This document shows, in pieces, positions 14,175-55,989 of a stretch of 64,000 nt of DNA; position 1 is the first letter of the stretch, and each line of letters starts with the position of its first letter. The notes below the pieces were generated by a model, which did no database searches, was not told the DNA's origin, and worked only from the letters and a program-made list of their open reading frames with translations. Both the position numbers and the translations under genes were made by a program. Origin of the DNA: Candidatus Cloacimonadota bacterium (GTDB lineage: Bacteria > Cloacimonadota > Cloacimonadia > G963667145); contig OY781092.1 of the NCBI GenBank assembly GCA_963676615.1, forward strand, positions 973,745 through 1,037,744. The letters are read 5' to 3'.

Positions 14175-14501
14175 ATGAAAAAAGCGTATTATTCTATCGG
14201 CGAGGTCTGCAACCTGTTGGAGTTGCCCGATTACACCGTCCGTTATTGGGAGAGCGAGTTCAAGCAGCTATCGCCCAGCAAGCTCTCTGGACGCAAACGG
14301 CAGTTCACCAAAAAAGATATCAAACTCTTGCAAGAGATAAAATATATGCTCCACACGCAAGGCTACACCATCAAAGGCGTGAGAAAAATTTTGAACAATC
14401 GCAACAAAAAAGAGGACATCAAACAGGAGTTCGACCGAGCAACTGTGAAAAAACAGATCCTCAAAGCAATCCAAGAGATTGAAAATATTATAGCTGAATA
14501 A
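14175..14501 (+). CDS. MerR-family transcriptional regulator
   Basis: It has a MerR HTH (YSIGEVCNLLELPDYTVRYWESEF) and a C-terminal coiled-coil. It lies 10 bp upstream of hisG. The start is chosen at the internal Met. Confidence 0.7.
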   Translation: MKKAYYSIGEVCNLLELPDYTVRYWESEFKQLSPSKLSGRKRQFTKKDIKLLQEIKYMLHTQGYTIKGVRKILNNRNKKEDIKQEFDRATVKKQILKAIQEIENIIAE

Positions 14502-14511
14502 AGGACACAAA

Positions 14512-15369
14512 ATGAAGAAATTAAACCTAGTTTTGCCCAAAGGAAGAATTTTTGATCAGGTAAAAGATCTGCTCAGCCAAGCTGGCGTCAAGCTCACCCT
14601 CAGCGGCAGAGGACTGCGCCCGGCAACGAACAACGAAGATTTAATCGTTAAGATAATGAAGCCGCGCAACATCGCCAATCTGCTGGCTTTGGGCAGGCAC
14701 GACATCGGCTTTAGCGGGGACGACTGGATTTTGGAATCTGGGGTAACCAACGAGCTGACCACAATTTTGCCTCTGGGATTCAACCCCGTGAATATCGTGG
14801 CAGCGATTCCCGACAATCTAACTCTAGAGGGGCTAAAAAAGCGAAAAATCGTTGTCGTTTCTGAATACGAAAAAATCGCCAAAAGTTGGCTCGACGACCA
14901 AGGTTTCGACTACGAATTACTGACGGTGCACGGCGCAACGGAGGTTTATCCGCCCGAGGACGCGGATATGATCATAGACAACACCTCGACGGGTAACACA
15001 CTGCGAGACAATAATTTAAAGATTGTTGCCACGCTTATGCAATCTTCGACAAATTTCGTTGCCACCAAAAGCGCGATGAACGATTCCTGGAAAAGCGAAA
15101 AAATTTTGGAGCTGAAAATGCTGTTTGAGGCTATCCTTTTGGGACGCAACAAATCGATGATCGAGATGAATATCCCCCTAGAAAAAAAGGAGATTATCGA
15201 AAAATTGCCAGCGCTGAAATCGCCAACCGTGATGCCTTTGGCTGGCAATGCTGGCTTTGCTGTAAAAATCACCATCGACACGCAAGAGGTCGCCTCGCTT
15301 CTACCAAAGCTGAAAAAAATGGGCGCTTGCGACATTTTGGAATACAATCTGAACAAGGTAATCTTATGA
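14512..15369 (+). CDS. hisG: ATP phosphoribosyltransferase, long form with a C-terminal regulatory domain
   Basis: It begins LNLVLPKGRIFDQ and has the P-loop-like DNTSTGNTL. At 285 aa it is the long form. Its stop overlaps the next gene in an ATGA overlap. Confidence 0.85.
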   Translation: MKKLNLVLPKGRIFDQVKDLLSQAGVKLTLSGRGLRPATNNEDLIVKIMKPRNIANLLALGRHDIGFSGDDWILESGVTNELTTILPLGFNPVNIVAAIPDNLTLEGLKKRKIVVVSEYEKIAKSWLDDQGFDYELLTVHGATEVYPPEDADMIIDNTSTGNTLRDNNLKIVATLMQSSTNFVATKSAMNDSWKSEKILELKMLFEAILLGRNKSMIEMNIPLEKKEIIEKLPALKSPTVMPLAGNAGFAVKITIDTQEVASLLPKLKKMGACDILEYNLNKVIL

Positions 15370-17024
15370 TTAAAACCAAGCCCAGCGTAGAAAATTTGGC
15401 GCCGTATCAAGGACCGCCAGCGGACAGAATCGAGAAAATCCGCCTAGATTTCAACGAAGTAAATTTGCCGCCATCACCAAAATTGAGCCAGTTAAAATTC
15501 GACCCGCTGCTCTCGGGCGTCTATCCGCAAGAGGACAAGCTCATCGAAATTTTGGCAAAACGGTTTGGCGTCGCACCAAATTCTTTGCTGATTTGCAACG
15601 GCTCAAACGAAGCTATCACCTTGATTTTTGAGGCGTTTATTCAAGAAGGCGATCAGGTGCTCATCCCATTTCCGACTTTTTCGGTCTACTATCTGTTGCT
15701 ACAAAGCAAAAACGCCAAAATCAACAAAATCGCTTACGACGAAAATTTGCGCTTCCCCAAAGAAAAATTTCTGGCAGCCGCCAAAAAAAATCCCAAGCTC
15801 ATCGTTTTGGTGAACCCCAACAATCCCACGGGCGATATGCTCTCAAAGGCAGAAGTCGAGCAAATTTTGCAAGCTGCACCCGACTCGCTGCTCGTGCTGG
15901 ACGAGGCTTACATCCACTTTGCGGAAACGGAGCTGTGGGACTTGACACTGAAATACGAAAATTTGGTCGTGCTCAGAACTTTTTCCAAAGCCTACGCTCT
16001 GGCAGGACACAGAATCGGTTTTGCCATCGCAAATCCTGCAACAATGTCGCTGCTCTACAAGGTTTCACTGCCGTTTCGCATCAATTATTTTTCGCTAAAA
16101 GCCGCCAAAATCGCCCTTGCCGACGAGGAGCATTTTCAATACATTTTATCCACCATCAAAGACGAAAAGCAAAAAATGGAGAAATTTTTCCACTCGCTAA
16201 AAATCGATTTTCTGCCTAGCCAAACCAACTTTCTTCTGGTCAAAACTGGCATATGGAGCAAAGCGATTTACCAAACTTTGGCAGAGCAAGGCGTTATGGT
16301 ACGGCATCAAAAAAGCGGTCCGCTCAAAAATTACATCCGCATCTCGATGGGCACGCCAAAGCAGAACGAAATTTTTCGGGACGCTTTCCAAAAATTGTGG
16401 GCAAATCGGCTTTTGGCGTTCGATATGGACGGCACGCTCATCGATGTCGAACAGTCATATGTCCAGTCGATTAAAGACACCGTCGAGCATTTTTCGGGGA
16501 AAGCGGTCTCGTCTGCGCAAATCGACGCTGTGCGGAAAATTGGCGGCTACAACAACGATTGGGACTTAACGGAGTATCTTTTGCTGCAAGAAAAAATCGA
16601 AGTTGAAAAAACCGAAATTATCGAAAAGTTTGAAAATTTTTATCGTGAAAACAAAAAAACGGAAAAGTGGCTTTTGCCCAGCGAAGATTTGGCGGCTTTG
16701 AGCCAAGAGATTCCGCTGGCGATTTTTTCGGGACGACCACGAAAAGATATCGCTTACGCTCTCGATTTTTTCCAGAAAAAAGAGTTTTTCGGCGAAATTG
16801 TCGGAATGGAAGACACAAAAGATAAGCCAAAGCCCGACGGTTATGGGCTGGAGTTACTTCGCCAAAAATGCAACGCAAAGTTGATTGTATATGTTGGCGA
16901 CACCGTGGACGATGTCAGCGCGGCGCTTTCCGCTGGCTGCGTTGCGGTCGGTTTGCCCCAAGATGAGCGGGCGGATTACTACCTAAAAAAAATTACCGAG
17001 ATAAAAAATTTGGTGTTAAAATGA
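15366..17024 (+). CDS. hisC: Histidinol-phosphate aminotransferase fused to a C-terminal HAD-family phosphatase domain
   Basis: The N-terminal roughly 350 aa are a class-II aminotransferase with the PLP lysine in TFSKAYALAGHRIGF. The C-terminus carries HAD motif I LLAFDMDGTLID and motif IV VGDTVDDVSAA. ATGA overlaps on both sides show translational coupling. Confidence 0.8.
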   Translation: MIKTKPSVENLAPYQGPPADRIEKIRLDFNEVNLPPSPKLSQLKFDPLLSGVYPQEDKLIEILAKRFGVAPNSLLICNGSNEAITLIFEAFIQEGDQVLIPFPTFSVYYLLLQSKNAKINKIAYDENLRFPKEKFLAAAKKNPKLIVLVNPNNPTGDMLSKAEVEQILQAAPDSLLVLDEAYIHFAETELWDLTLKYENLVVLRTFSKAYALAGHRIGFAIANPATMSLLYKVSLPFRINYFSLKAAKIALADEEHFQYILSTIKDEKQKMEKFFHSLKIDFLPSQTNFLLVKTGIWSKAIYQTLAEQGVMVRHQKSGPLKNYIRISMGTPKQNEIFRDAFQKLWANRLLAFDMDGTLIDVEQSYVQSIKDTVEHFSGKAVSSAQIDAVRKIGGYNNDWDLTEYLLLQEKIEVEKTEIIEKFENFYRENKKTEKWLLPSEDLAALSQEIPLAIFSGRPRKDIAYALDFFQKKEFFGEIVGMEDTKDKPKPDGYGLELLRQKCNAKLIVYVGDTVDDVSAALSAGCVAVGLPQDERADYYLKKITEIKNLVLK

Positions 17025-17611
17025 ACAGAATTGCGAAAATCGAACGAAATACCAGCGAGACGAAAATCAAAATCGAGCTAAACCTCGATGGCGAAGGCAA
17101 CTATCAAATCGACACAGGCGTCGGATTTTTCGACCATATGCTCGAAGGGCTCTGCAAGCACGGCTTGTTTGACCTGAAGCTGAAAGCAACGGGCGATTTG
17201 CATGTCGATCAGCATCACTTGGTGGAAGATGTCGGCATCGCTTTAGGGCAAGCTTTTGGCAAAGCTCTGGCGGACAAAAAAGGCATCGAACGCAGCGGCT
17301 ATTTCGTCTATCCGATGGACGAGGCGCTCGCCGTGGTGGCTGTGGATTTAGGCGGCAGAGCCTATTTGCAATACGACTGCAGATTTTCGCGGCAATTTTG
17401 CGGCGGTCTGGATTTGGACTTAATGCCCGATTTTTTCGCAGGGCTATCCCAAAATATTCCGGCAAATCTCGTGGTACGAATGCCATACGGTCGCAGCGAT
17501 CATCACAAATTAGAGGCGTGCTTCAAGGCTCTGGCGAAGGCTCTACGCTTTGCCTGCGCCTATCTGCCACGAGCAACCGACAAAATTCCCTCAACCAAAG
17601 GCAGCCTATGA
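17021..17611 (+). CDS. hisB: Imidazoleglycerol-phosphate dehydratase (monofunctional)
   Basis: IGPD motifs are present: RNTSETKIKIELNLDG, GFFDHML, HHLVEDVGIALGQA. At 196 aa there is no fused phosphatase domain. Confidence 0.9.
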   Translation: MNRIAKIERNTSETKIKIELNLDGEGNYQIDTGVGFFDHMLEGLCKHGLFDLKLKATGDLHVDQHHLVEDVGIALGQAFGKALADKKGIERSGYFVYPMDEALAVVAVDLGGRAYLQYDCRFSRQFCGGLDLDLMPDFFAGLSQNIPANLVVRMPYGRSDHHKLEACFKALAKALRFACAYLPRATDKIPSTKGSL

Positions 17612-18462
17612 AAACCTACCTCGAGTGCTTTCCCTGCTTCCTCAAACAAGCGTTACACATCGCCAAACTTTGCGGGCTGAGCCAAGCAAATCAAAAAAAA
17701 GTGATTGACCAAACTGGCGCCCTTTTTGCCCAAATCGACTTGAACGCTACCGCGCCGCAAATCGCCAGCATAATTCACGACAAGCTCAAAGATTTTTTGC
17801 AAAACGACGACCCTTACGCACAAATAAAAGAGCAAAATGTCGCCCAAGCGCTAAAACTTGTGCCTGCGCTTACCTCCAAACTGCAAGCCGCAAAAAATCC
17901 GCTGCACAGCGCCGCTCGCCTTGCAATCGCTGGAAATGTTATCGACCTTGGCGCACACCAAAAATTTAATCTCGAACAAGAACTGCAGAGCGTGCTTACC
18001 GCCGGCTTTGCCATCGACGACTTCGACGATTTCGCCCAAGACATCAAAAAAGCTAAAAAAATCGTCTATCTTGGCGACAACACCGCCGAAGGCATTTTCG
18101 ACAAAATATTCATCCAACAAATTGCAAAACCAACAATTTACACAACTCGCGAAATTCCCGTAATAAACGACATTACCACACAATGGGCAAAAAGAATCGG
18201 CATCGACACCGTAGCAAATGTCGTCAGTTCGGGAGCGAAAACGCCAGGAACTGTGCCCGAGCTGTGTTCACCGCAATTTCAAAAAACTCTGGCAGAGGCG
18301 GAAATCATCATCAGCAAAGGACAGGGCAACTACGAGGCGCTCTCGGACACAAATTTGCCAATCTACTTTTTCCTCAAAGCCAAATGTCAGGTCATCGCCG
18401 ACCACATCGGCGTTCCGCTGGGTTCGTATCTCCTAATAAAAAATCAGAGGAGGGCAAAATGA
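17608..18462 (+). CDS. DUF89 (ARMT1-like, damage-control phosphatase) family protein
   Basis: It begins MKTYLECFPCFLKQALHIAKL, a characteristic DUF89 N-terminus. It sits inside the his operon with ATGA overlaps at both ends. The track ORF starts earlier in the same frame. Confidence 0.65.
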   Translation: MKTYLECFPCFLKQALHIAKLCGLSQANQKKVIDQTGALFAQIDLNATAPQIASIIHDKLKDFLQNDDPYAQIKEQNVAQALKLVPALTSKLQAAKNPLHSAARLAIAGNVIDLGAHQKFNLEQELQSVLTAGFAIDDFDDFAQDIKKAKKIVYLGDNTAEGIFDKIFIQQIAKPTIYTTREIPVINDITTQWAKRIGIDTVANVVSSGAKTPGTVPELCSPQFQKTLAEAEIIISKGQGNYEALSDTNLPIYFFLKAKCQVIADHIGVPLGSYLLIKNQRRAK

Positions 18463-19058
18463 TAGCCATAATCGACTACGGAGCGGGAAATCTGCATTCC
18501 GTGCAAAACGCCTTGAGCCACCTGCATGCCGACCACATCATCGCATCAACTCCGCAGCAAATTCTTGCGGCAGACAAAGTAATTTTGCCCGGCGTCGGAC
18601 ACTTTGGACAAGCCAGCGGCAAGCTGGAAAACTCGGGCTGCTACGACACTCTGCTCGACTGGATACGCCAAGACAAGCCGTTTTTGGGAATCTGCGTCGG
18701 TTTGCAACTTTTAATGGAAGGCAGCACCGAAGCACCCTCTGCAAAAGGGTTCGGTTTCTTTGCGGGGAAATGCGAAAAATTTGTCGGCAAAAGGGTGCCA
18801 CAAATGGGCTGGAATCAGATTTCGTTCCAGCGCGAAGACCCAATTTTTCAAGAAATACCCGACCAAAGCAACTTCTACTTCGTCCACAGCTACTACCCAA
18901 AAGCGCAAAATCAAGCCGACATCCTCGCCAAATGTAGCTATTGCGACCAAGATTTCGGGGCAATTTTGCAAAAAGGCAATATCTATGGCACACAATTTCA
19001 CCCCGAAAAAAGCGGCAAAGCGGGGCTGCAACTTCTCAAAAATTGGATAAATCTGTAA
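18459..19058 (+). CDS. hisH: Imidazole glycerol phosphate synthase, glutamine amidotransferase subunit
   Basis: It begins MIAIIDYGAGNLHSVQNAL and has the catalytic Cys in GICVGLQLL plus a C-terminal HPEKS motif. A strong RBS (GAGGAGGG) is present. Confidence 0.9.
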   Translation: MIAIIDYGAGNLHSVQNALSHLHADHIIASTPQQILAADKVILPGVGHFGQASGKLENSGCYDTLLDWIRQDKPFLGICVGLQLLMEGSTEAPSAKGFGFFAGKCEKFVGKRVPQMGWNQISFQREDPIFQEIPDQSNFYFVHSYYPKAQNQADILAKCSYCDQDFGAILQKGNIYGTQFHPEKSGKAGLQLLKNWINL

Positions 19059-23909: not shown

Positions 23910-24428
23910 TTAACTTTCTGGGAACAAAATTTTGTCAAATTTAAATTGATAAATCGGATAATTCAGATATTTATCGACCTTGTCCATCGCGACCTTGCTC
24001 AGCAGCAGTAGCACAGACTCATCGCTGGGCATCGAGTTCCTGATTTTCAAAACTTTCCGAAACTGTTTATTCAAATTTTCGATCCAATTTGTGGTGTAAA
24101 TCAGCCGCTGAATTCTGTGGTCAAACTCCAAAAAAGTGAAATAATAAACGACATCGTCTCTGTTTAATAACTTCTTGGTAAATCGATACTTATCTCCCCA
24201 TTTTTTCGCAAAATTATCCAAATTTTTCAAAGCAATTTCTTTCGTATAGCGTTCTTGTCCGACGCAAAAAATTTCCTTCAAATCGTCGCTAATTTCGCTT
24301 TTATCACTATTCCTGACCTTAGCTAATAGACTTCTTTTAAAGTGAGTTACACACTTTTGAAATTTCGCATTTTTAAAAACTTTGCTCACCACATTTTCCA
24401 GCCCAACAAGGCCGTCAGCCACGACCAA
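23910..24428 (-). pseudogene. IS256-family transposase, C-terminal part (split ORF)
   Basis: It begins VVADGLVGLENVVSKVFKNAKFQKCVTHFKRS, which continues the conserved core (DGxxGL ... FPxAxxQRC-like). Together the two parts give about 386 aa. Confidence 0.7.
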
Positions 24429-24437
24429 TTTTGTCGT

Positions 24438-25079
24438 TTACAAGCCTCGCGATTTTAGGCGATTAAACAAGAATTCCCAGCCAGCAGCGCTCTCGGTCGG
24501 GATATTTTCGAGCGCCAAAATGTCCCGACTTTTGTCCTCTCGGACGCCGATAACCACGCAAAACGCCTCAGTTTCAACACTGTCGAGCCGCCTCAATTTG
24601 GAATGTATGGCGTCAATCATAATAATCGGATAGTTTTTTTCTAGCGGCCTATTTCGCCAATTTGTCAACAATTCTTTGAATTCTTGGCTGATATTGCTGA
24701 TGGTCGATTTTTTGTAATTCGTGCCAAAAACATTTGCGAAAACATTCTCTATGTCTCTGGTAGACAAGCCTTTAGCATACAGCTGAAACGCCAATTCTCG
24801 TACTTCTTGCTCCTGCTTTTTCAAAATTTCCAAGATAAATGGATAAAATTGACCGAATCTGTCGCGCGGAATTTTGAATTGAATTTTGCCGCTGAGAGAT
24901 GAAAAACACCTGCTGCGATAGCCGTTGCCTTTGTTGTTTGAGCTTTTGTTTTCCGCCATAAAAGCCTGTCTTTCCAGCTTCATAAGGCTGTTAAAAACGA
25001 ACTCGATCAATTTATTCGCGCCATAATCATTGACATTTTCGTCTAAAATTTTTTGTAGTTGACTTGCGTTAAATCGCAT
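24438..25079 (-). pseudogene. IS256-family transposase, N-terminal part (split ORF)
   Basis: The sequence MRFNASQLQKIL ... AFQLYAKGLSTRDIENV ... IIMIDAIHSKLR matches the Transposase_mut pattern. The ORF terminates about 10 nt before the next ORF, which continues the same protein. Confidence 0.7.
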
Positions 25080-32389: not shown

Positions 32390-33103
32390 TTAAATCGTTT
32401 TTGTCTCAAACTCATTTTTTTGTAAAGCTATTTTTAAACTTTCAAAATTCAGCTCGTCCAGACTATACTCCGTATATCTTTTCCCAAAATCTTTTCGATA
32501 ATGAGCGTCGGAATTTCGCACCAGCGGCAACCCGTATTTTTCCCATGGCGCAAAATCTCCCACAACCTCCAGCGCATCAAAATCCACATCCTGCGGCAAA
32601 AATCCCAGCTGCGACTTTGTGCTAAAGCTATCGGCGTCCACATGCGAGGCGACCAAAAAGCCGCCATACTGCGCAACTTTGGCAGAAGTCGTCTGCAAAT
32701 CCCAGCTCACCGAATTCAGCAAAAGCTTGCCCTCAAACCCAAGCACCATCTCGTTTTCGTCGATAAGCACCTGATCGCCAAAAAAACCTTTGCGATTTTG
32801 AATGTCAGGCAGCGCCCGATACAGCTCCGCATCAAAAGCCGCCGCAGTCTTGCAGTCGGGAAAATACGCCAAAAGGTGCACCTCCAAACTGGTTTGAATC
32901 TCCACGCCGTAAATAAAATGGATGCCAAATTTTTGGGCAATACTCGCATAAGCCAAAGAGTTCGCCAGACTATTATGCTCCGTGATAGAGAGCATCCCAA
33001 AGCCCAAATCTCTGGCTTTTTCAAACAAAAGCGAGGGCGACATCGAATAATCGCCACACGGCGACAAAACAGAATGCAAATGCAAATCGGCCTTGCAAAC
33101 CAT
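32390..33103 (-). CDS. PHP-domain (polymerase/histidinol-phosphatase-like) metal-dependent phosphoesterase
   Basis: It begins ADLHLHSVLSPCGD and has SITEHNSL, the PHP His-rich motifs. Confidence 0.7.
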   Translation of the reverse strand: MVCKADLHLHSVLSPCGDYSMSPSLLFEKARDLGFGMLSITEHNSLANSLAYASIAQKFGIHFIYGVEIQTSLEVHLLAYFPDCKTAAAFDAELYRALPDIQNRKGFFGDQVLIDENEMVLGFEGKLLLNSVSWDLQTTSAKVAQYGGFLVASHVDADSFSTKSQLGFLPQDVDFDALEVVGDFAPWEKYGLPLVRNSDAHYRKDFGKRYTEYSLDELNFESLKIALQKNEFETKTI

Positions 33104-34723
33104 CTATTGCACCGCCACCAACTTATACAAAATCCCCGAAATCTGAAAAGAGTTATAAGGACTGCTCACAAGCACAATCCCCTCTTCGTTTGCCTTCTCA
33201 ATCACCTCTGGCGTCGGCATCTTATTCTTGGCAAAAATTATCGCATCAATCTCCAAGAGCGACGCCACAGCAATCGAATTTTGATGCTGCATAATCGTCA
33301 CCCACACTTGGCTATCGCCAGCCGAAGCCATCACATCCGAAAGCAAATCGCCCGCATAAACGCTGCTAACTCTCACGCTCGACAAATCTTTCTCCTTCGT
33401 CAAAAGTTTGCCGCCAATATACTCAATCAACTTCGCCAAAGACATCTCTTTTTTCTCCTGCAAATTAAAAACACAATCCGAAAACTTCGCCTTTCCACTC
33501 ACAATCTCCTTCGCCAAAACCTCGCAAGTCGGACACCCGCAAATCCCGCAATTTTTACCCGGCAAAAGCTTTTTAATGTCCTCATACTTTTTCATTTTGG
33601 CGATTTTTTCTTTAATCGACAAATTATCCACCTCGCGCGGCACAGGCGTAATCTCATTTTTTATCTCGAACTCTTTGTTTTTGAACAACTTATAAAAAAG
33701 CTCTTTGTCGATTTTTTCGAACTTCACATCCGAAGAAGCGATACGATTTGCCGCAATAAACGGATTTTCCACATTCAAATCTCCGCCGACACAACCGTTG
33801 GTGCAACTGCGCAGCACCACATAATCGTAATAATCCAGCTGACCGCCCTCGATTTTGGACAAAATATCTTTCGCACCCTTAAAACCGCTAACCGCCAAAG
33901 TCTTAAAATTGCTCTCCTTCACCTGATTGCCCTCGGAAATATAAATCCCCCAATTCTCGTGATTTATAACGCCACCCGAGTTTTGCACATCCTTTTTCTC
34001 GTCCTGCTTCTGATTATAACAAATATTCATAATCCGATTGTAAACATCGCGCATCGCCAAAGCGCCGTCCTGAAAAGATTTATCTTGCCCAACAGGATTT
34101 TTGAAAGCGGTAATTTGCGACGAACACGGAGCCACCGAAAAAATTCCAATCTCGTCTGGCTTGAACCCTTTTTTTTCTGCCAAATAGTGCCGATAGTAGG
34201 CGCTCAAAATCGCCACAGAAGACTCCAGCGGCACAATATGCTCCAGCAGCGACGGGTACTTAACCCTTATCAGCCGCACAATCGCAGGACAATTCGACGA
34301 AATCAAAGGGCGAATTTTGGCATCGTTCAACTTTTGCGCAAAAATCGGCGCCATCACTCCAGTAATCATATTTTCATCGATCACCTTGTCGAAACCCAGC
34401 TGCAAAAGGGCGTCCGTCGCCACCGCATAATCGATTTTGGGCGGAAGCTGCCCGATAAAAACATTCGACAAAAGCGCCACACGATATTTAAACCTAGAAT
34501 CGTGCAAGAGCTCATCGAAATCGTCGTAAACGCTTTTGATGGCTCCCACAGGGCAAATTTTGATGCACTGTCCGCAGCTGATGCACTTGTGCTGATACAG
34601 CTCGACCTTGCCGTCGCGGAGCCTGATGGCAGACACTGGGCAAACCCGAATACACCTCGTGCAACCGATGCACTTCTCCTTATCCTCCTGCACCGAGCCG
34701 CTAAAATTCACAATATTTTCCAT
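33104..34723 (-). CDS. Sensory [FeFe]-hydrogenase-like protein (HydS/HfsB-type) with a C-terminal DRTGG-like domain
   Basis: It has an N-terminal 2x[4Fe-4S] (CIGCTRCIRVCP, CISCGQCIKICP). The H-cluster-like motifs are degenerate: SSNCPAIV (L1 with one Cys), APCSSQ (L2) and CTNGCVGG (L3). An extra CGICGCPTC motif is present. The C-terminal roughly 110 aa (AGDLLSDVMA ... VLVSSP) resemble the adjacent DRTGG protein. Confidence 0.7.
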   Translation of the reverse strand: MENIVNFSGSVQEDKEKCIGCTRCIRVCPVSAIRLRDGKVELYQHKCISCGQCIKICPVGAIKSVYDDFDELLHDSRFKYRVALLSNVFIGQLPPKIDYAVATDALLQLGFDKVIDENMITGVMAPIFAQKLNDAKIRPLISSNCPAIVRLIRVKYPSLLEHIVPLESSVAILSAYYRHYLAEKKGFKPDEIGIFSVAPCSSQITAFKNPVGQDKSFQDGALAMRDVYNRIMNICYNQKQDEKKDVQNSGGVINHENWGIYISEGNQVKESNFKTLAVSGFKGAKDILSKIEGGQLDYYDYVVLRSCTNGCVGGDLNVENPFIAANRIASSDVKFEKIDKELFYKLFKNKEFEIKNEITPVPREVDNLSIKEKIAKMKKYEDIKKLLPGKNCGICGCPTCEVLAKEIVSGKAKFSDCVFNLQEKKEMSLAKLIEYIGGKLLTKEKDLSSVRVSSVYAGDLLSDVMASAGDSQVWVTIMQHQNSIAVASLLEIDAIIFAKNKMPTPEVIEKANEEGIVLVSSPYNSFQISGILYKLVAVQ

Positions 34724-34738
34724 CTTCTACTTTTTTCC

Positions 34739-35218
34739 TTAAAAAAACACGACCAAATCTAGCTCCGTATTTCCCGCAGAATAAAGCCTCATAATATCCA
34801 CATTATCTTTGATATTCGGCAGTCCCATACCAGCACCAAAACCCATTGAACGCGCCAAATCGTCTGCCGTGGAATAGCCCGGCTGCATCGCTTTTTCGAT
34901 ATCGGCAATGCCAGGACCATTATCGACAAACCGCAGATGCACAAACTCTGGATAAATTCCCACCAGCATCTTGCCACCCTTGGAATGCGCCACCACATTT
35001 ATCTCCGCCTCATAGCTCGCCACAGCAAAACGCCGCAAAGAGCCCGTATCGATGCCCAAACTTTTCAGCTTCTTCTTAACTTTCGTCGTCGCTTTTCCCG
35101 ATTCGACAAAATCTTTGGCTTTAATCTCAAAATCGAAATTTATCGCTGGCTTATCCAGCTCGTTCAAAAAAACTTCTGGCTCAACCTGTGCATCTTTGCT
35201 AAACTCAAAACTACTCAT
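34739..35218 (-). CDS. GHKL/HATPase_c-type ATP-binding protein (anti-sigma regulatory factor-like)
   Basis: It has VDNGPGIADIEK and GFGAGMGLPNI. At 159 aa it is a second paralogue within the same locus. Confidence 0.7.
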   Translation of the reverse strand: MSSFEFSKDAQVEPEVFLNELDKPAINFDFEIKAKDFVESGKATTKVKKKLKSLGIDTGSLRRFAVASYEAEINVVAHSKGGKMLVGIYPEFVHLRFVDNGPGIADIEKAMQPGYSTADDLARSMGFGAGMGLPNIKDNVDIMRLYSAGNTELDLVVFF

Positions 35219-35576: not shown

Positions 35577-37931
35577 CTAATGCACCCTTATATATTGCTT
35601 GAGCGCTTCCAAATCTTTCTTCAGCTGCGCCATCAACTCCGCCTGCGAAGCGAACTTTTTCTCCGCCCGCAAAAACCGCAAAAACTCCACTTTCACCTCT
35701 CGGCCGTAAATATTTTTATTAAATTTATAAAGATAATTTTCGATCGTCTTCTTCCGCTCATCGCTACGCACAGTAGGCGCAAAGCCGATATTCGTAAGGC
35801 CATAATAGCCCTTGTCGCCGATTTTGGTATGCGTGATATATACCCCTTCGGCTGGATAAATTTTGAACTCCTCTTTGGGGCTTAAATTCAAAGTCGGGAA
35901 GCCAAGACTTCCGCCAATTTTGCGACCTTTCTCCACAGTTCCCACAACCGAATAGTTCCGCGAAAGATAGCGCCTGATGCCGTTAATCTCGCCTTTTTTT
36001 ATCTTCTCTCGAATGAGTTTGCTGCAAACAATCTCGCCGCTCATAATCAAAGGATCAACCAGACGCACCTTGATGCCATAAGGCTTGCCCAGCTTCATCA
36101 AAAGCCGATAATCGCCCTCTTTGCCTTTACCAAATCTGGTGTCGTGTCCACAAACAATCTCGCGAATATGCAACTTCTCCAGCAAAATCTTCTTGAAAAA
36201 CTCCTCGGCCGTAAAATGCGCGACCTCATCAAAATCCAGATACAAAATCGAATGCACCCCAAATTTGTGAAAAAGCAAATGCTCCTTATGTTTCCGCTCC
36301 AAAATCATATACGGTTCTATCGGGCGGTTGTCCATTTTCAAAAAATGCTCCCGAGTATGAGCGCGATAAGTCAGCACCAAAGCCTCTCCGCCCGTATCCG
36401 TCGCACGAGAATACAACCTGTTCAAAAGTTTCGAATGCCCAAAATGCAACCCCTCAAAATTGCCAATGGCAACAATCGGATACTTATACCGCAAGCTCGT
36501 CTGCTGGGTAATATCCACGATGCTCCCTTTCGGTGTATAGGGAATATCCTGGCTGGCAATCACGATTTTGAACATCTTCGACAAATTCGCAAAACTTTCG
36601 ACCTTCTTAATTTCGTCAGTTGAAAACTCAATCTTTTTCAAGTTTCGGAACCTGCCCAAAAAAGTCAAATCGACAAAAGATTGCAAAAACTCTGGCGTCT
36701 CGTCGTAAAAGCTCAACCGCTCCAGCTTTGTGCAATTTTGCAATCCCGATAAGTTGGTCAAATTTTCGGCTTGTATCCGAAAAAAGTTACTATTCACCAG
36801 CTCCCGCAGCTCGCTAGAATTTGGCAAAAACAAAGAGTAGCCGTTGTCCAGCTGCACATTAAACGCTCGCTTCCACTGCGGCTCCAGATTATTCCACCAC
36901 TGCCGCAAAAGCTTTTTAGAGTCAAAAAACGACGCATTTTGAGTTGCAAAAAGTTTCCGCAATCGCAAAAATTCCCTTCGCTTTTCCTTCCGCAATCTCC
37001 ATTTTTCCCAAAATTTGAACGAAACCATACTCACTAAAATCAAAATCAGCAATCCCAAAACTCCACCAATGATTAAAATCTTAGTATTCCGCTTCTCTGT
37101 AAAAAGCGCGCTCACCCTCTGTTTTTCTGACTCCGGCAAAGTTTTGCTATCCTCAGAGAACAAAAAAACTTTCAAACTTTTAAGCTTTTCCACGCCATCC
37201 AAATTGGTTAATTTATTTTTGAAAATAAAAATCTTTTCCAAATCTTTCGCATTCTCAAGACCTTTTATGTTGGCAATCTCGTTGTTGTGCGCCAACAAAA
37301 TCTTCAACTTCGGACTGCTACTCAGCGGCTCCAGCGACGAAATATTGTTGTGATTGATCGAGAGTTCCTCCAAAAGCGGCTTGTTCGCCAACGGCTCTAT
37401 CGACGAGATAAAGTTCCGATGCACATAAACCCTCTTCAGATTTTGCAAATCCTCAAGCCCTCTCAAATCTTGCAAATCGTTAAAATCAGCCCGCAAATAC
37501 TCTAGCTTCTTCAAATTCCGCAAGCGCCACAGCGACTGAATTCGGTTGTCACTTAGCTTCAACTCTTTTAGGTTCACCAAATTTTCAATGCCGTTCAAAT
37601 CAGCAATCTGGTTGTAAGAGCAATTGACATTTTCCAAATGATCTAGCTGACTCAATCCGCTGACATCCGTGAGGTTATGCCCATACAAAAACAAAGTTTT
37701 TCGCTTCAGCAAACTTTCCAAAAACACATCTTTTGGTTTTTGCACAGTTTTTCCTAACCCCAAAACCCTATTGAACGCCAGCTTCCACTGATAATCCAGA
37801 CCGTTCCACCATATCTCCCGTTTTTCGGGGGTATCAAATTTTCGACTCATCTCCACTTTTTGAGCAGCTGCCCACAAAAACCCTTGTAAAACCACAACTA
37901 TAAATAAAATTTTCAACAATTTTTTCATCAC
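35577..37931 (-). CDS. ribF: Fusion ORF: signal peptide + leucine-rich-repeat domains with a mid-protein TM helix, fused in frame to bifunctional riboflavin kinase/FMN adenylyltransferase (RibF)
   Basis: There are about 22-residue LRR units (NLxxLxxLxLxxNxIxxL) in two blocks around the TM helix ILIIGGVLGLLILILVSMV. The C-terminal roughly 310 aa are RibF (VAIGNFEGLHFGH ... riboflavin-kinase motifs GEIVCSKLIREKI, PTLNL). The 784 codons contain no stop. A possible internal GTG start for RibF, with an AAGGGAG SD, lies at the complement of 36515-36517. Confidence 0.7.
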   Translation of the reverse strand: MMKKLLKILFIVVVLQGFLWAAAQKVEMSRKFDTPEKREIWWNGLDYQWKLAFNRVLGLGKTVQKPKDVFLESLLKRKTLFLYGHNLTDVSGLSQLDHLENVNCSYNQIADLNGIENLVNLKELKLSDNRIQSLWRLRNLKKLEYLRADFNDLQDLRGLEDLQNLKRVYVHRNFISSIEPLANKPLLEELSINHNNISSLEPLSSSPKLKILLAHNNEIANIKGLENAKDLEKIFIFKNKLTNLDGVEKLKSLKVFLFSEDSKTLPESEKQRVSALFTEKRNTKILIIGGVLGLLILILVSMVSFKFWEKWRLRKEKRREFLRLRKLFATQNASFFDSKKLLRQWWNNLEPQWKRAFNVQLDNGYSLFLPNSSELRELVNSNFFRIQAENLTNLSGLQNCTKLERLSFYDETPEFLQSFVDLTFLGRFRNLKKIEFSTDEIKKVESFANLSKMFKIVIASQDIPYTPKGSIVDITQQTSLRYKYPIVAIGNFEGLHFGHSKLLNRLYSRATDTGGEALVLTYRAHTREHFLKMDNRPIEPYMILERKHKEHLLFHKFGVHSILYLDFDEVAHFTAEEFFKKILLEKLHIREIVCGHDTRFGKGKEGDYRLLMKLGKPYGIKVRLVDPLIMSGEIVCSKLIREKIKKGEINGIRRYLSRNYSVVGTVEKGRKIGGSLGFPTLNLSPKEEFKIYPAEGVYITHTKIGDKGYYGLTNIGFAPTVRSDERKKTIENYLYKFNKNIYGREVKVEFLRFLRAEKKFASQAELMAQLKKDLEALKQYIRVH

Positions 37932-51272: not shown

Positions 51273-53465
51273 ATGAGTATAGAACAAGGAATTAATTCCA
51301 TACGAGAAAGTAATAAAAAGGTTGAAACTCAACAATGGTTTCAAAAACTTATTCAGACAGATGAATATGTTGGTGATTTGTATTCCATAAACTATGAAAC
51401 TGCGCGAGTAATAATTCATGACTTCTACAGAGAAAAAGTAGGAGGAATTCCAAGTTTGAGTTTCTTAATTGCTTCAAGAGTTGACCCAAATAATTCAGAA
51501 ATTGACTTTAAAACAGAGGATGCATCATTTATTCTTTTAAGAGTAATGGATGCAGCTGCACTTCCACAAGACAGAGAAGCTGAAAGAATTAGAGTTGAAA
51601 CAGCACAAAGAATAAGTGGTGAAACTGAAAAAAATTGGGATGAAGCAGGTTCAATGGATTTAAGAACAAAAAATCTGTTAAGTTTTGCTGGTGTGCAATG
51701 CAGAATAATCGGAACATTTTATCTCGAAGAAAATGGACAAAATGGAGAAGCACCACTTAATTTAAAATTCGGTAGTGACATTTCAAATTATTATCCAAAC
51801 AGAGGATTAAAAGTTTATAAACCAAATGGAAAGGCTCTTGAGTTAATTGTAAATTATTCTGACCCTTCAAATATTCAAGCACACATTGAAAAATATGGAA
51901 ATACAGAAAATGTAAAATTGGGTTTTGTAAGATATGCTTCAACAAATAGGAAATATCAGCAAATTGATGATGTCCCTGTTTATATTTATCCAGCAGACCT
52001 TCTATCTCAAAAATCTGCCTTGTTTGGAATGACAAGAACAGGGAAATCCAATACTACTAAAATAATTGCGAAATCTGTTTTTGAATTACGAAATGCACAA
52101 CAGTCTGGAGAAAAGCCATTAAGAATTGGGCAAATAATTTTTGACCCTAACGGTGAATATGCAAATGAAAACACACAGGATAAGGATGGCAGTGGAAATC
52201 CAAATGCACTCAAAAATATTTGGAAAAAAAACGAAACTTTAAAAAATGTAGCTGATAACTTAAAACAACAATATATCCAAGAGAAAGACATTGAAGATAA
52301 AAAAAGACTATGGAATGAAATTAAGACGTTGATTGATTCTGAAGTGGTTACTTTTGGTATTTTACCTCATCCAAATGATCCTGGCAGGAAGAGAATGCTA
52401 CTAAATTTCTATCTTGATGATAATTTACCTATTGGTAAAGAAATTATAAATTCTCTTTTGTCTGACGATACCACAATATATATAAAGAATTTTTTGCAGG
52501 TAAATTTGGAAAAACCTGACGAAAATGATAAGAGTGCAATGACAAGATATAAGAGAAGAGTTTTAGCATATCGTTCAGTTCTTGCACGAGCAGGTTTTCC
52601 TGTACCAGAAAAATTTAATGTTTCAGTAAAAAGTTTGTTTAATAAGGATTTATTGAATGCGATGGAAAATAGTAAAAGTGATAATTCGGTAGAATATAAA
52701 TCTGGGGCAAAAGTTTTTAAAGAAGAGAATCCTACTTTGCAACAATTAGCTGGTGCATTTGAATCACTTGATAAATTTATTCGCGAAAATAAAGAATACA
52801 AAATTTTTGAAACTGATTATGTTCAAAATTCAAAATCAGGTAATGCTTGGGCGGATGAGGATTTGAAAAAAATTATTGGGATTTTCCAATATCCAAATGG
52901 TACACGAAAAATTGGTAAAGCAGTAGAGCAACATAGTGCTGATACAACATGTGACTATGCAGATGATATTTATAATGATTTAAAAAACGGGAAACTTGTA
53001 ATTATTGATCAGTCAAGTGGAGATTCAGAGTTAAATGAGTCTTCAGCAAAAAGAGTGATGAAAAAAATATTTGATGAAAATAAAAATCTTTTTACATTGG
53101 GGAAAATTCCCCCCGATATAATGGTATATGTTGAAGAGGCACATAATATTTTACCATCTGATAAAGAAAAAGACTTAAAAGACATTTGGGTAAGAACAGC
53201 AAAAGAAGGAGCTAAATTGCATATAGGACTTGTTTACGCTACCCAAGAAGTAAGTAGTATTCAAAGAAATATTTTAAAAAATACAGCGAATTGGTTTATA
53301 AGCCATTTAAACAATACAGATGAAACCAAAGAACTCTGCAAGTACTATGACTTTGCAGACTTTGAACCGTCAATAAGGCGAGCACAGGATAAGGGCTTTT
53401 TAAGAGTTAAAACATTAAGCAATCTGTTTGTAATTCCTGTTCAAGTTGACAAATTTGAGGTTTAA
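51273..53465 (+). CDS. HerA/DUF87-family P-loop ATPase (FtsK-HerA superfamily)
   Basis: Walker A is FGMTRTGKSNTTK, followed by DPNGEY. Walker B is IMVYVEEAHNIL and the sensor motif is YATQEV. The N-terminal roughly 250 aa look like a HAS-barrel. The gene is very AT-rich. The start is chosen at MSIEQG (ATG 51273). Confidence 0.65.
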   Translation: MSIEQGINSIRESNKKVETQQWFQKLIQTDEYVGDLYSINYETARVIIHDFYREKVGGIPSLSFLIASRVDPNNSEIDFKTEDASFILLRVMDAAALPQDREAERIRVETAQRISGETEKNWDEAGSMDLRTKNLLSFAGVQCRIIGTFYLEENGQNGEAPLNLKFGSDISNYYPNRGLKVYKPNGKALELIVNYSDPSNIQAHIEKYGNTENVKLGFVRYASTNRKYQQIDDVPVYIYPADLLSQKSALFGMTRTGKSNTTKIIAKSVFELRNAQQSGEKPLRIGQIIFDPNGEYANENTQDKDGSGNPNALKNIWKKNETLKNVADNLKQQYIQEKDIEDKKRLWNEIKTLIDSEVVTFGILPHPNDPGRKRMLLNFYLDDNLPIGKEIINSLLSDDTTIYIKNFLQVNLEKPDENDKSAMTRYKRRVLAYRSVLARAGFPVPEKFNVSVKSLFNKDLLNAMENSKSDNSVEYKSGAKVFKEENPTLQQLAGAFESLDKFIRENKEYKIFETDYVQNSKSGNAWADEDLKKIIGIFQYPNGTRKIGKAVEQHSADTTCDYADDIYNDLKNGKLVIIDQSSGDSELNESSAKRVMKKIFDENKNLFTLGKIPPDIMVYVEEAHNILPSDKEKDLKDIWVRTAKEGAKLHIGLVYATQEVSSIQRNILKNTANWFISHLNNTDETKELCKYYDFADFEPSIRRAQDKGFLRVKTLSNLFVIPVQVDKFEV

Positions 53466-53476
53466 ACAGTATTTAT

Positions 53477-54865
53477 ATGGGATTTGAAGGAGAATTTGCC
53501 AGTTATGAGCCATTAAGGCGAATGCTTGATAGTGATAAAGTTAAATCACTCCAAGACAGACTGAAAATACGAAAACAAGAAGAAGAAACAGATACTTTTA
53601 CTGGCTCAATTGTTAAAAAGTCAGACTTGACTGAAAGTTCAATTCAACCAGATTTAGTTTTAGCTATTGATGGAAGTAATTTAGTGGCTAAAGCTGAAAA
53701 TGGTTTCCCAGGTGCAGAATTTGGTTATATTACAATAGCTTCTGTTTTAATAGATTTAAAGTTAATAGACAATTTAGAAAAGAAAAAGTTTATTGATCCA
53801 AAAAAAGTTAGAGAAACTGAAAAGGCATCAACAATAGAAAGTGTTTTTCCTGGGTGCAATGTAATATTAGATAACGAAAAAAATGCAAAAGCTTCAATTC
53901 GAAGAGCATTATTTGAAGAATTAAAAAGCAATACAATATTTGCGAATGGCGGAGAAACCTTATTGGGTACATACGAATATTTGTTCAGAATAAAGAGGGA
54001 ATATTTCTCCGAAATCCGCCTTCCAAGAAGCCCTATTGATGGTATTGATGATGAAATGACTTATGGATATGGTGAATATAATTGCCCTCATTCAGGAGAA
54101 AAACTATACTCAACTGATGCTTTGCGCTTACACGAATTAATGAATCCTGGTGGAACTAATGGAGAAATGTTTGGGCAAATAATGTCAACTCTTGAAAAAC
54201 TTTGGTTAGTTCACATACTTAGAGCCTTTGAACAAAAAAAATGGTTGTCAACACTTCGGAGAGTAGCATTTATTATGGATGGGCCATTAGCTGTATTTAG
54301 TACTTCATCATGGTTAACTAAAGTAATTAATTATGAATTAAATAGACTAAATGATTTGCAGAAAGCAGTTAACGGTCAGGATTTATTAATTATCGGTATT
54401 GAAAAATCAGGGACATTCGTAAATCATTTCGAGGAAATTGATACGACTAAAGATGGAGTTAGAGATAAATTCCCTAAACAATCAGCATTACTTCTTGATG
54501 ATGGATATATAAAAAGAAATATTATTTTTTCTGAAAGCATAAAACCATATGGTCAGGACACCTATTTTGGAAGGAAAATATTTTATAAAACTGCCTCTGG
54601 ACAAAAAATAGTTGCTGCAACTGCATTTTTGAGAAGCTTTTCTTCAGATAAAGAATTTTCCGAATATTTAGATTCTAGTAATCCTGTTAATTTTTCAAGA
54701 CTTCCAGATGTTATGAATTTACTTGATAAATTGGTTTCAAGTAGATACCCAAATTCCGTTTCACCTTTAGTATCAGCTCATGCAGAAGCAGCAATTCCTT
54801 TAAATTTAGGTAAACGTATATTTGAGGATATTGCAAGAGAAATAAGAGAAAATTCAAAACTATGA
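53477..54865 (+). CDS. NurA-like nuclease (RNase-H-like fold)
   Basis: It has LVLAIDGSNL near the N-terminus (catalytic-Asp motif) and later FIMDGPLAV. At 462 aa it lies immediately downstream of the HerA-like gene. Confidence 0.5.
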   Translation: MGFEGEFASYEPLRRMLDSDKVKSLQDRLKIRKQEEETDTFTGSIVKKSDLTESSIQPDLVLAIDGSNLVAKAENGFPGAEFGYITIASVLIDLKLIDNLEKKKFIDPKKVRETEKASTIESVFPGCNVILDNEKNAKASIRRALFEELKSNTIFANGGETLLGTYEYLFRIKREYFSEIRLPRSPIDGIDDEMTYGYGEYNCPHSGEKLYSTDALRLHELMNPGGTNGEMFGQIMSTLEKLWLVHILRAFEQKKWLSTLRRVAFIMDGPLAVFSTSSWLTKVINYELNRLNDLQKAVNGQDLLIIGIEKSGTFVNHFEEIDTTKDGVRDKFPKQSALLLDDGYIKRNIIFSESIKPYGQDTYFGRKIFYKTASGQKIVAATAFLRSFSSDKEFSEYLDSSNPVNFSRLPDVMNLLDKLVSSRYPNSVSPLVSAHAEAAIPLNLGKRIFEDIAREIRENSKL

Positions 54866-55989
54866 TAGTTTTAAATGATGTTTTAAAAGGGCGTAGTACT
54901 GCAGAAGCACGATGGGCAAGATTTGGTCCATATTATGCGATGTTTCCTGTAGATTTTGCTTTTGAAGTTGTTCAAAAATATTCAAAAGAGGGTGATTATA
55001 TAATAGATCCTTTTGCTGGAAGATGCAGTAGTATATATGCTGGGGGTGTTCTTGGTCGAGTTAGTTTAGGAATTGAAATTAATCCAGTTGGATGGCTTTT
55101 TGGAAAAGTAAAACTTCGACCTGCAAAAAAAGATCTTGTAATTGCAAGGTTGCTTGAGATTTATAAAAAAAGAGATTGTTATAGTTTAGCAATTGAAAAA
55201 ATGCTTGAATTTTATCGTATTTGTTATTGTGATGAGGTTTTAAAATTTTTATTAGCAGCAAGAGAAAATCTTGATTGGGAAAATAACAGTATTGATGCTT
55301 CCCTTATGTCTATTCTTTTGGTTTACTTACATGGTAAATTAGGAGAAGGCTTGTCAAATCAAATGAGAATGACAAAATCAATGGGAATGAACTATTCTGT
55401 TAAGTGGTGGAAGAAGAATGGTTTTATAAATCCGCCTGAAATTAATCCTTATGAATTTATTCTTAAGAAGATTGAATGGAGGTATGAAAAAGGTACACCA
55501 AGTATTACTGAAAGTGATGTTGTTTTTGGAGATAGCACTATTGAATTAAAAAAAATTGTCCAAAGAGCAGAGAGAAATAATATAAAATTTTCTTTACTTT
55601 TTACATCTCCGCCTTATTATTCAATTACGAATTATCATGCTGATCAATGGCTTAGAATATGGCTTTTAGGTGGGGCAGAAAATCCTCATTCATTTAATGC
55701 CAAATATAAAGGACGCTTTGGAAATAAACAAGAATATTATAATTTGCTTGATAGTGTATTTGGATATTCTTCTAAATTAATGGGGAAAGATAGTGCAATT
55801 TATGTTCGCACAGATAAAAGAGAATTTACTTTTAATTCAACTTTAGAAATATTAAAAAAACATTTTCCACATCATAAAATACAACTTATTGAAAAACCAC
55901 TGGATAATAATACTAAAACACAAACTAAATTATATGGAGATAAATCAATAAAGCCAGGGGAAGTAGATATAATATTGACAATAAAGTAA
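54862..55989 (+). CDS. DNA methyltransferase (N6-adenine / N4-cytosine type, SPPY motif)
   Basis: It has the SAM motif IIDPFAGRCSS and later the catalytic LLFTSPPYYSITNY. Its start overlaps the stop of the NurA-like gene (ATGA). Confidence 0.65.
   Translation: MIVLNDVLKGRSTAEARWARFGPYYAMFPVDFAFEVVQKYSKEGDYIIDPFAGRCSSIYAGGVLGRVSLGIEINPVGWLFGKVKLRPAKKDLVIARLLEIYKKRDCYSLAIEKMLEFYRICYCDEVLKFLLAARENLDWENNSIDASLMSILLVYLHGKLGEGLSNQMRMTKSMGMNYSVKWWKKNGFINPPEINPYEFILKKIEWRYEKGTPSITESDVVFGDSTIELKKIVQRAERNNIKFSLLFTSPPYYSITNYHADQWLRIWLLGGAENPHSFNAKYKGRFGNKQEYYNLLDSVFGYSSKLMGKDSAIYVRTDKREFTFNSTLEILKKHFPHHKIQLIEKPLDNNTKTQTKLYGDKSIKPGEVDIILTIK

Follow-up and report, generated by a model that had tools for sequence, protein, structure and literature searches.

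Among the steps of histidine biosynthesis, it is the dephosphorylation of histidinol phosphate for which several unrelated solutions exist. This histidinol-phosphate phosphatase is also the commonest apparent gap in the pathway, with low-confidence candidates in 28% of 148 prototrophic microbes analyzed with GapMind (PMC7311316). Kinateder et al. 2024 described histidinol-phosphate phosphatases that form a HAD lineage characterized by a single large helical cap; assayed enzymes include toHisN from Thermococcus onnurineus (with counterparts in T. kodakarensis and P. furiosus) and nmHisN from Nitrosopumilus maritimus (PMC10804674). Here, we analyze a 64,000-nucleotide stretch of DNA (hereafter the window) from a Candidatus Cloacimonadota bacterium (GenBank assembly GCA_963676615.1, contig OY781092.1, positions 973,745 to 1,037,744), in which a gene at 15366-17024 on the forward strand joins histidinol-phosphate aminotransferase (HisC) to a C-terminal HAD domain. 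The product of this gene is most probably bifunctional, covering steps 7 and 8 of the histidine pathway, and its HAD half is predicted to hydrolyze histidinol phosphate.

nmHisN (Nmar_1556) is encoded between hisC and hisB, hydrolyzes histidinol phosphate with a kcat/KM of about 1.1e4 M-1 s-1, and is inactive on nine other phosphoesters (PMC10804674). Its specificity fingerprint consists of Y24, D25, K56, and E64 (Y-D-R-D in toHisN) together with the accessory residues I28 and I52, and the D25A substitution lowered kcat/KM about 220-fold (PMC10804674). Clusters from Euryarchaeota and deltaproteobacteria that carry Arg at position 25 (the 'Y-R-K-D' pattern) were regarded by the same authors as 'likely' phosphatases (PMC10804674).

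The open reading frame in the window ends with the stop codon at 17024 and yields a protein of 552 amino acids from the ATG at 15366. The original prediction had described a 565-residue product of 15366-17024 in which HisC is joined to a C-terminal HAD domain. Both domains and the coordinates were borne out, and the length has to be corrected, as 565 residues are reached solely from a TTG at 15327 that lies inside hisG and outside those coordinates. The TTG was rejected and the ATG favored as the start because the ATG overlaps the hisG stop codon as ATGA, because 552 amino acids is the gene-call length on three independent contigs, and because the nearest homologues are 551-553 amino acids long. 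The same 552-residue protein is found, identical, on these three contigs from different assemblies, one of which is a circular contig of 1.57 Mb at 899x coverage (ENA ERZ25074360).

Judged by its sequence, the N-terminal part (residues 1-344) is a bona fide HisC. It scores 293 bits over residues 6-343 against the HisC equivalog model TIGR01141, above the cutoff of 276.55, and the Pfam domain Aminotran_1_2 covers residues 56-340 (E 3e-46). Among 66 fused homologues, no variation is seen in the motif P151-N-N-P-T-G156, D179, Y182, S207-K208 (with the lysine that binds pyridoxal phosphate), or R325. When the protein was compared with the PDB using Foldseek, the 50 best matches were nearly all HisC structures (target TM-score up to 0.90, approximately 320-370 aligned columns), and none of these 50 spans both domains.

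The C-terminal part carries the complete set of HAD motifs, and Pfam places HAD_2 at residues 352-528 (E 2e-21; HAD_2 and Hydrolase together cover 348-528). Motif I contains D353 and D355 (FDMDGT, 352-357), motif II S455 accompanied by R457, motif III K489-P490, and motif IV G511-D512 and D516 (GDTVDD, 511-516), with little or no variation at these positions across 78 homologues. Conserved residues are also found in the cap, namely S364, Y365, R390, D398, and W399. In the AlphaFold2 (AF2) model of the HAD half (predicted local distance difference test, pLDDT, 96.3), a Rossmann-like core carries a four-helix C1 cap between motifs I and II, as in subfamily IA. In the model of the full-length protein (pLDDT 94.4, predicted template modeling score 0.90), the C-terminal helix of HisC (331-346) runs into strand 1 of the HAD domain (348-352). 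Among the NCBIfam families, TIGR01548 is the best match to the HAD half with 117.6 bits and a lead of 60 bits. TIGR01656, which represents the HisB-N type (HAD-IIIA), reaches 29.5 bits against a cutoff of 84.15 and matches the C-terminal motifs III-IV only. The HAD half shows no sign of decay: between the window protein and the fusion protein of a relative (46% identity), the HAD halves are 47% and the HisC halves 46% identical, so that the phosphatase part has not evolved faster than its partner.

A link to characterized enzymes leads through Thermococcus. A family profile (A2) built from 22 HAD halves was searched against all PDB sequences, and the best match was 6IAH, the phosphatase Tt82 of Thermococcus thioreducens (E 3e-25, 92 bits, cap helices covered), with the runner-up at 71 bits. 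Although deposited simply as 'Hydrolase', 6IAH is the product of the HAD gene of the T. thioreducens his operon. A profile-profile alignment with hhalign of the fused HAD halves and 28 HAD proteins from his clusters of Thermococcales and Thermoplasmata gave a probability of 99.95% (E 6e-38, 199 columns). For Tt82 (P0128) and its orthologue in T. kodakarensis KOD1 (P0177), TIGR01548 is the sole NCBIfam match at E <= 1e-5, and both are encoded by the last gene of a his operon with the order hisG-D-B-H-A-F-IE-C-HAD. At the loci of T. kodakarensis and T. thioreducens (L009, 7007-8729, and L010, 6991-8726), the last 10-17 nt of hisC are shared with the start of the HAD gene, which is read in another frame. 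The T. onnurineus enzyme toHisN is said to correspond to TON_0887 and is reportedly due to Lee et al. 2008. Because of their synteny and the invariant S-Y-D...R...D motif found in the HAD proteins of Thermococcales his clusters, Tt82 and the T. kodakarensis orthologue are here taken to be toHisN-type enzymes, with Tt82 a probable orthologue of TON_0887 by gene order and the Y-D-R-D fingerprint.

Through these orthologues, the fingerprint of nmHisN can be mapped onto the window protein and 78 relatives as follows:

nmHisN Y24: Y365 in the window protein, aligned with Y18 of Tt82; Y in 76 and F in 2 relatives; conserved.

nmHisN D25: V366 in the window protein; R in 60 relatives, I in 9, M in 3, H in 2, and V, L, D, and Y in one each; not conserved.

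nmHisN I28 (accessory): I369 in the window protein; kept as I or V in the relatives.

nmHisN I52 (accessory): I386 in the window protein; kept as I or V in the relatives.

nmHisN K56 (R in toHisN): R390 in the window protein, aligned with the invariant R48 of the Thermococcales proteins; K in 66 and R in 12 relatives; conserved.

nmHisN E64 (D in toHisN): D398 in the window protein, eight residues after R390 and aligned with the invariant D56 of the Thermococcales proteins; D in 77 relatives and E in one; conserved.

Of the four fingerprint residues, the window protein has thus kept three, and it has kept both accessory residues as well. Most fusions carry Arg at the position of D25, which is the 'Y-R-K-D' pattern of the clusters mentioned above, and the clade of the window protein (P0001-P0010) has Val, Ile, or Leu there.

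The fusion of HisC and HAD is widespread. A word-indexed search returned more than 100 full-length fused homologues, with Woesearchaeota, Nanoarchaeia, Planctomycetota, and Terriglobales among the named sources; several of them carry an additional N-terminal HisG and one a C-terminal imidazoleglycerol-phosphate dehydratase (IGPD). The HAD profile was also used in a HMMER search over 1.84 billion representative sequences (clusters at 50% identity), which yielded 724 clusters at E <= 1e-30, and the architectures were read in the best 150 of these 724. HisC-HAD was found in 81 of the 150, HisC-HAD-IGPD in two, HisG-HisC-HAD in one, and HAD alone in 66, and accordingly 84 are fused. The junction between the two domains is tight, with 25-32 residues between the last conserved Arg of HisC and the HAD nucleophile in 59 of 66 fusions. 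Three distant fusions are located in complete his operons (hisG, hisC-HAD, IGPD-only hisB, hisH, hisA, hisF/IE, and hisD), where no other phosphatase is present; one is encoded in a Woesearchaeota genome, one on a Terriglobales contig, and one in a genome of 2.06 Mb. A scan of genome contigs with the motif-I pattern FD[MLV]DG[VT]L[VI][DN], which is uninformative and recovered neither the genome of the window nor its close relatives, gave at least 18 strong matches. Among the 18 listed, HAD stands as its own gene between hisC and hisB in seven Acidobacteriota loci, is fused in one case (Lysobacterales), belongs to a his cluster but does not adjoin hisC in another, and is not beside his genes in the remaining nine. 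The HAD domain is fused to HisC in the window, and its gene adjoins hisC on the downstream side in Thermococcus and the seven Acidobacteriota loci. Taken together, the fusion to HisC, the further fusions to HisG and IGPD, and the location inside complete his operons tie the HAD half strongly to the histidine pathway.

Public annotations name one half of such proteins only, and NCBI calls the fused protein P0117 a 'TIGR01548 family HAD-type hydrolase'. Triple fusions of the types HisC-HAD-IGPD (steps 7, 8, and 6) and HisG-HisC-HAD were collected as well (P0103, P0314, P0334; P0011, P0017, and others). The description of TIGR01548 reportedly mentions that members of this family formerly carried the unexplained annotation 'imidazoleglycerol-phosphate dehydratase', and the HisC-HAD-IGPD form may be the source of that annotation. 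Literature searches for a fusion of HisC with a phosphatase found no paper describing one. The enzyme type as such, a cap-type HAD histidinol-phosphate phosphatase encoded beside hisC, is already known, and it is the covalent fusion that is undescribed in the papers searched.

The fusion gene is part of a his operon, which is arranged as follows:

14175..14501, forward strand: regulator of the MerR family with a helix-turn-helix domain, directly upstream of hisG (Pfam MerR_1, E 6e-19).

14512..15369, forward strand: hisG, long-form ATP phosphoribosyltransferase of 285 amino acids (Pfam HisG and HisG_C; TIGR00070, 134 bits against a cutoff of 75.75).

15366..16397, forward strand: HisC half of the fusion gene, residues 1-344 (TIGR01141, above its cutoff).

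16398..17024, forward strand: HAD half of the fusion gene, residues 345-552, predicted histidinol-phosphate phosphatase (TIGR01548-like, helical C1 cap).

17021..17611, forward strand: hisB, monofunctional IGPD of 196 amino acids (Pfam IGPD at residues 32-175, E 2e-59; NF002111, 254 bits against a cutoff of 231).

17608..18462, forward strand: DUF89/ARMT1-like metal-dependent phosphatase, a rival or accessory phosphatase (Pfam PF01937, E 8e-64).

18459..19058, forward strand: hisH, glutamine amidotransferase subunit of imidazole glycerol phosphate synthase (TIGR01855, 224 bits against a cutoff of 105.4).

The five genes hisG, hisC-HAD, hisB, DUF89, and hisH are translationally coupled by four ATGA start/stop overlaps, and a methyltransferase gene follows this unit. 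The remaining genes hisA, hisF, hisIE, and hisD were not found within the window. The model for bifunctional HisB (NF003937) matches hisB solely through its C-terminal half (model positions 166-355), in agreement with the earlier reading of this hisB as an IGPD that has no phosphatase domain. The MerR-type regulator, whose start codon is uncertain (gene calls of 108 or 113 amino acids), is found at the equivalent position in the relatives L002 and L091 and may regulate the his operon specifically in this lineage, a role suggested by its position alone.

In the proposed mechanism, the pyridoxal phosphate-dependent HisC half would convert imidazole-acetol phosphate and glutamate to L-histidinol phosphate, which the HAD half would then hydrolyze to histidinol and phosphate through a Mg2+-dependent aspartyl-phosphate mechanism. 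D353 would act as the nucleophile and D355 as the acid/base, S455 and K489 would bind the phosphate, and D512 and D516 the metal. The cap residues Y365, R390, D398, and W399 would recognize the substrate, holding its imidazole and amino portion. The HAD half would belong to the TIGR01548/toHisN/nmHisN lineage of cap-type HAD phosphatases, and a gene that directly follows hisC as a separate gene in Thermococcus and Acidobacteriota (and, according to the literature, in Nitrosopumilus) would have merged with hisC here, as in many other lineages, with essentially no linker. Loss of a short overlap between the two genes is a plausible origin of the fusion, because in Thermococcus the HAD gene overlaps the end of hisC in another frame and a single indel would make the fusion. 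We infer both the substrate and the benefit of the fusion, which may lie in 1:1 co-expression and in the hand-over of the substrate; direct transfer of the product from the HisC site to the phosphatase site is plausible.

Several observations weigh against this assignment. First, Val366 stands in place of D25 of nmHisN, and as the D25A substitution was so costly for that enzyme, position 366 is the main reservation at the sequence level. Second, the HAD half misses the TIGR01548 cutoff of 140.2, which is passed by the HAD halves of other fusions (P0117, 150 bits; the Woesearchaeota-type P0012, 153 bits) and by a stand-alone relative (P0121, 161 bits); because of its lower score, the window HAD is regarded as a divergent relative and not as a certified member of the family. 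Third, the fingerprint was mapped through the Thermococcus orthologues and the text of PMC10804674, and the fused clade and the 'Y-R-K-D' members of TIGR01548 are putative phosphatases. Fourth, the search for a canonical histidinol-phosphate phosphatase covered the 64-kb window, which is only part of the 1.57-Mb genome. Finally, a second, translationally coupled and lineage-conserved phosphatase (DUF89) is encoded in the same operon.

Regarding canonical phosphatases, the original prediction would have been refuted by a canonical hisN, hisJ, or PHP-type gene elsewhere. In the window, hisB has no N-terminal phosphatase domain, no IMPase-family gene is present among the called genes, and the sole PHP protein (32390-33103, reverse strand) was rejected as a HisJ-type enzyme since it scores far below the cutoffs (TIGR01856, 15.3 bits, E 0.012, against 90.2; NF005996, 19.3 against 133). 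This PHP protein of 237 amino acids is located, with neighbors up to approximately 34723, beside a sensory-type [FeFe]-hydrogenase in a cluster with an HATPase_c protein and NuoE/NuoF-like subunits, and may take part in hydrogenase regulation.

The DUF89 gene (17608-18462), for a phosphatase of the 'damage-control' type, had been overlooked by the original prediction. It could be that its product is the real or main histidinol-phosphate phosphatase here and that the HAD half has drifted to another substrate or a minor role. The gene stands between hisB and hisH, each of which it overlaps as ATGA, and its product is an intact family member, whose best PDB match is 2G8L (E 8e-43), a Pyrococcus horikoshii entry (PH1575). 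The placement is kept in the relative L091, where a DUF89 protein that is 44% identical is encoded at the equivalent position despite the fusion proteins sharing just 46% identity, and it is this lineage that has Val or Ile instead of Arg or Asp at the position of D25. On the other hand, DUF89 genes were found in none of the other his loci examined, regardless of whether HAD is fused or split, which argues for the HAD domain as the general solution. Furthermore, Ile or Leu is also found at position 366 in P0008-P0010, and the P0008 locus has no DUF89 gene nearby. We know of no DUF89 member reported to act on histidinol phosphate. Because the HAD half shows no relaxation relative to the HisC half and has retained every catalytic and cap residue except that at position 366, we consider it improbable that DUF89 is the main phosphatase.

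A less exclusive arrangement is conceivable, in which the his operon of this lineage encodes two phosphatases and DUF89 has a dedicated role in the histidine pathway. It might act on histidinol phosphate as a non-HAD enzyme and complement a HAD half whose specificity residue has changed from Arg/Asp to Val/Ile, or it might remove a phosphorylated side product or by-product. We regard such a dedicated role as rather unlikely, yet if true, it would be the first pathway-specific role of a prokaryotic DUF89 protein in amino acid biosynthesis. More generally, DUF89 could serve as the phosphatase for this step, as a back-up, or as a scavenger of another phosphorylated compound of the pathway.

As an alternative to histidinol phosphate as the substrate, the HAD half could be a general housekeeping phosphatase (acting, for example, on phosphoglycolate or sugar phosphates) whose fusion to HisC is unrelated to this compound. 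The best of the phosphoglycolate phosphatase models reaches 57.8 bits on the HAD half, far under the cutoffs of 180-466, whereas TIGR01548 scores 60 bits higher, and for this reason the HAD half is not grouped with phosphoglycolate or sugar phosphatases. The HAD half and the HAD proteins of the Thermococcus his operons have the cap motif S-Y-x...K/R-x7-D-W in common, which the phosphoglycolate-type matches do not share, and the partners in fusions and adjacent positions are always his genes (HisC, HisG, IGPD). The clustering with phosphatases of these types, outside any histidine-pathway context, that would have refuted the original prediction was therefore not observed: TIGR01548 is the best family, 6IAH the best PDB match, and the linkage to his genes is strong. 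A housekeeping role is very improbable. That the fusion is an artefact of a frameshift or of assembly can be considered effectively refuted: one indel would indeed merge the two genes where they are adjacent in different frames, as in several Acidobacteriota and in Thermococcus (where they overlap), but the identical product on three contigs (one of them circular at 899x), the 84 fused architectures among the best 150 of 724 representative clusters, the constant spacing of 25-32 residues at the junction in 59 of 66 fusions, and the confident AF2 model of the junction all speak against it.

The assignment of the HAD half as the candidate histidinol-phosphate phosphatase, which was the core of the original prediction, is well supported by its family placement, the homology to the Thermococcus proteins, the his-operon context, and a fusion that the distribution search found to be common and to recur in several lineages.

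Other features of the window lie apart from the his operon. An open reading frame at 35577-37928 (reverse strand) encodes a protein of 783 amino acids with faint leucine-rich-repeat matches and an FAD synthetase/riboflavin kinase (RibF) module, an unusual architecture for RibF. At 51273-55989 (forward strand), an island of low GC content (approximately 0.31 compared with approximately 0.45 elsewhere) contains a DUF87 (HerA-like) ATPase, a NurA nuclease, and a weak match to N6/N4 DNA methylases, and looks like an acquired defense or DNA-processing module. Two adjacent open reading frames of 170 and 213 amino acids at approximately 23910-25079 (reverse strand) both match Transposase_mut (IS256 type) and probably represent a frameshifted or split transposase. 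The GC skew of the forward strand is strongly negative over nearly all of the 64 kb (cumulative skew to -5.8), and long spurious open reading frames occur opposite real genes, for example at 32501-34762 (forward strand).

The HisC-HAD fusion provides a Rosetta-stone link, by which the function-less family TIGR01548 and the 'Arg-25' clusters are tied to the product of HisC. If the assignment is true, the phosphatase gap would be closed for many DPANN archaea, Acidobacteriota, Planctomycetota, and other lineages. With two consecutive steps in one rigid polypeptide, the fusion would also be a convenient system for testing the hand-over of histidinol phosphate between active sites. It extends a known enzyme type rather than introducing a new mechanism, and its practical value lies in annotation.

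In comparison with toHisN and Tt82, the HAD half is likewise a HAD-IA protein with a single helical C1 cap, and the cap motifs S-Y, R/K-x7-D, and F-x3-Y-x-G are found in both. The Thermococcus gene directly follows hisC in the same orientation. The Thermococcus enzymes, however, are separate proteins of 240 amino acids with an extra cap insertion of approximately 25 residues, and the residue after the cap Tyr is Asp in Thermococcus, Val in the window protein, and Arg in most fusions. In pairwise comparison, the proteins are only about 28-31% identical, and the BLAST alignment is confined to the N-terminal 78 residues.

The enzyme nmHisN likewise belongs to the HAD phosphatases and has a single large helical cap; it is encoded between hisC and hisB and is specific for histidinol phosphate (PMC10804674). 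The fused family has retained the positions Y...K/R...D/E as well as the hydrophobic accessory ones, and the order hisC-HAD-hisB, as in the seven Acidobacteriota loci, corresponds to the fusion in the window. In contrast to the window protein, nmHisN stands alone and has a larger cap (nine helices), and its D25 is not kept in the window protein, a comparison made via the published residues.

TIGR01548 (HAD-SF-IA-hyp1) is a 'hypothetical equivalog' that has no assigned function, and it is the top family for the window HAD, which scores under its cutoff. As the family has no functional name, the phosphatase step is not annotated.

Finally, the bifunctional HisB of E. coli and other Gammaproteobacteria is similar in that a histidinol-phosphate phosphatase of the HAD superfamily is fused to an enzyme of the histidine pathway. 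Its phosphatase, however, belongs to another HAD lineage, which is capless and GmhB-like (TIGR01656/HAD-IIIA). In HisB, the partner is IGPD and the phosphatase is N-terminal, whereas in the window protein the partner is HisC and the phosphatase is C-terminal. While HisB thereby joins the non-consecutive steps 6 and 8, the fusion in the window joins the consecutive steps 7 and 8.

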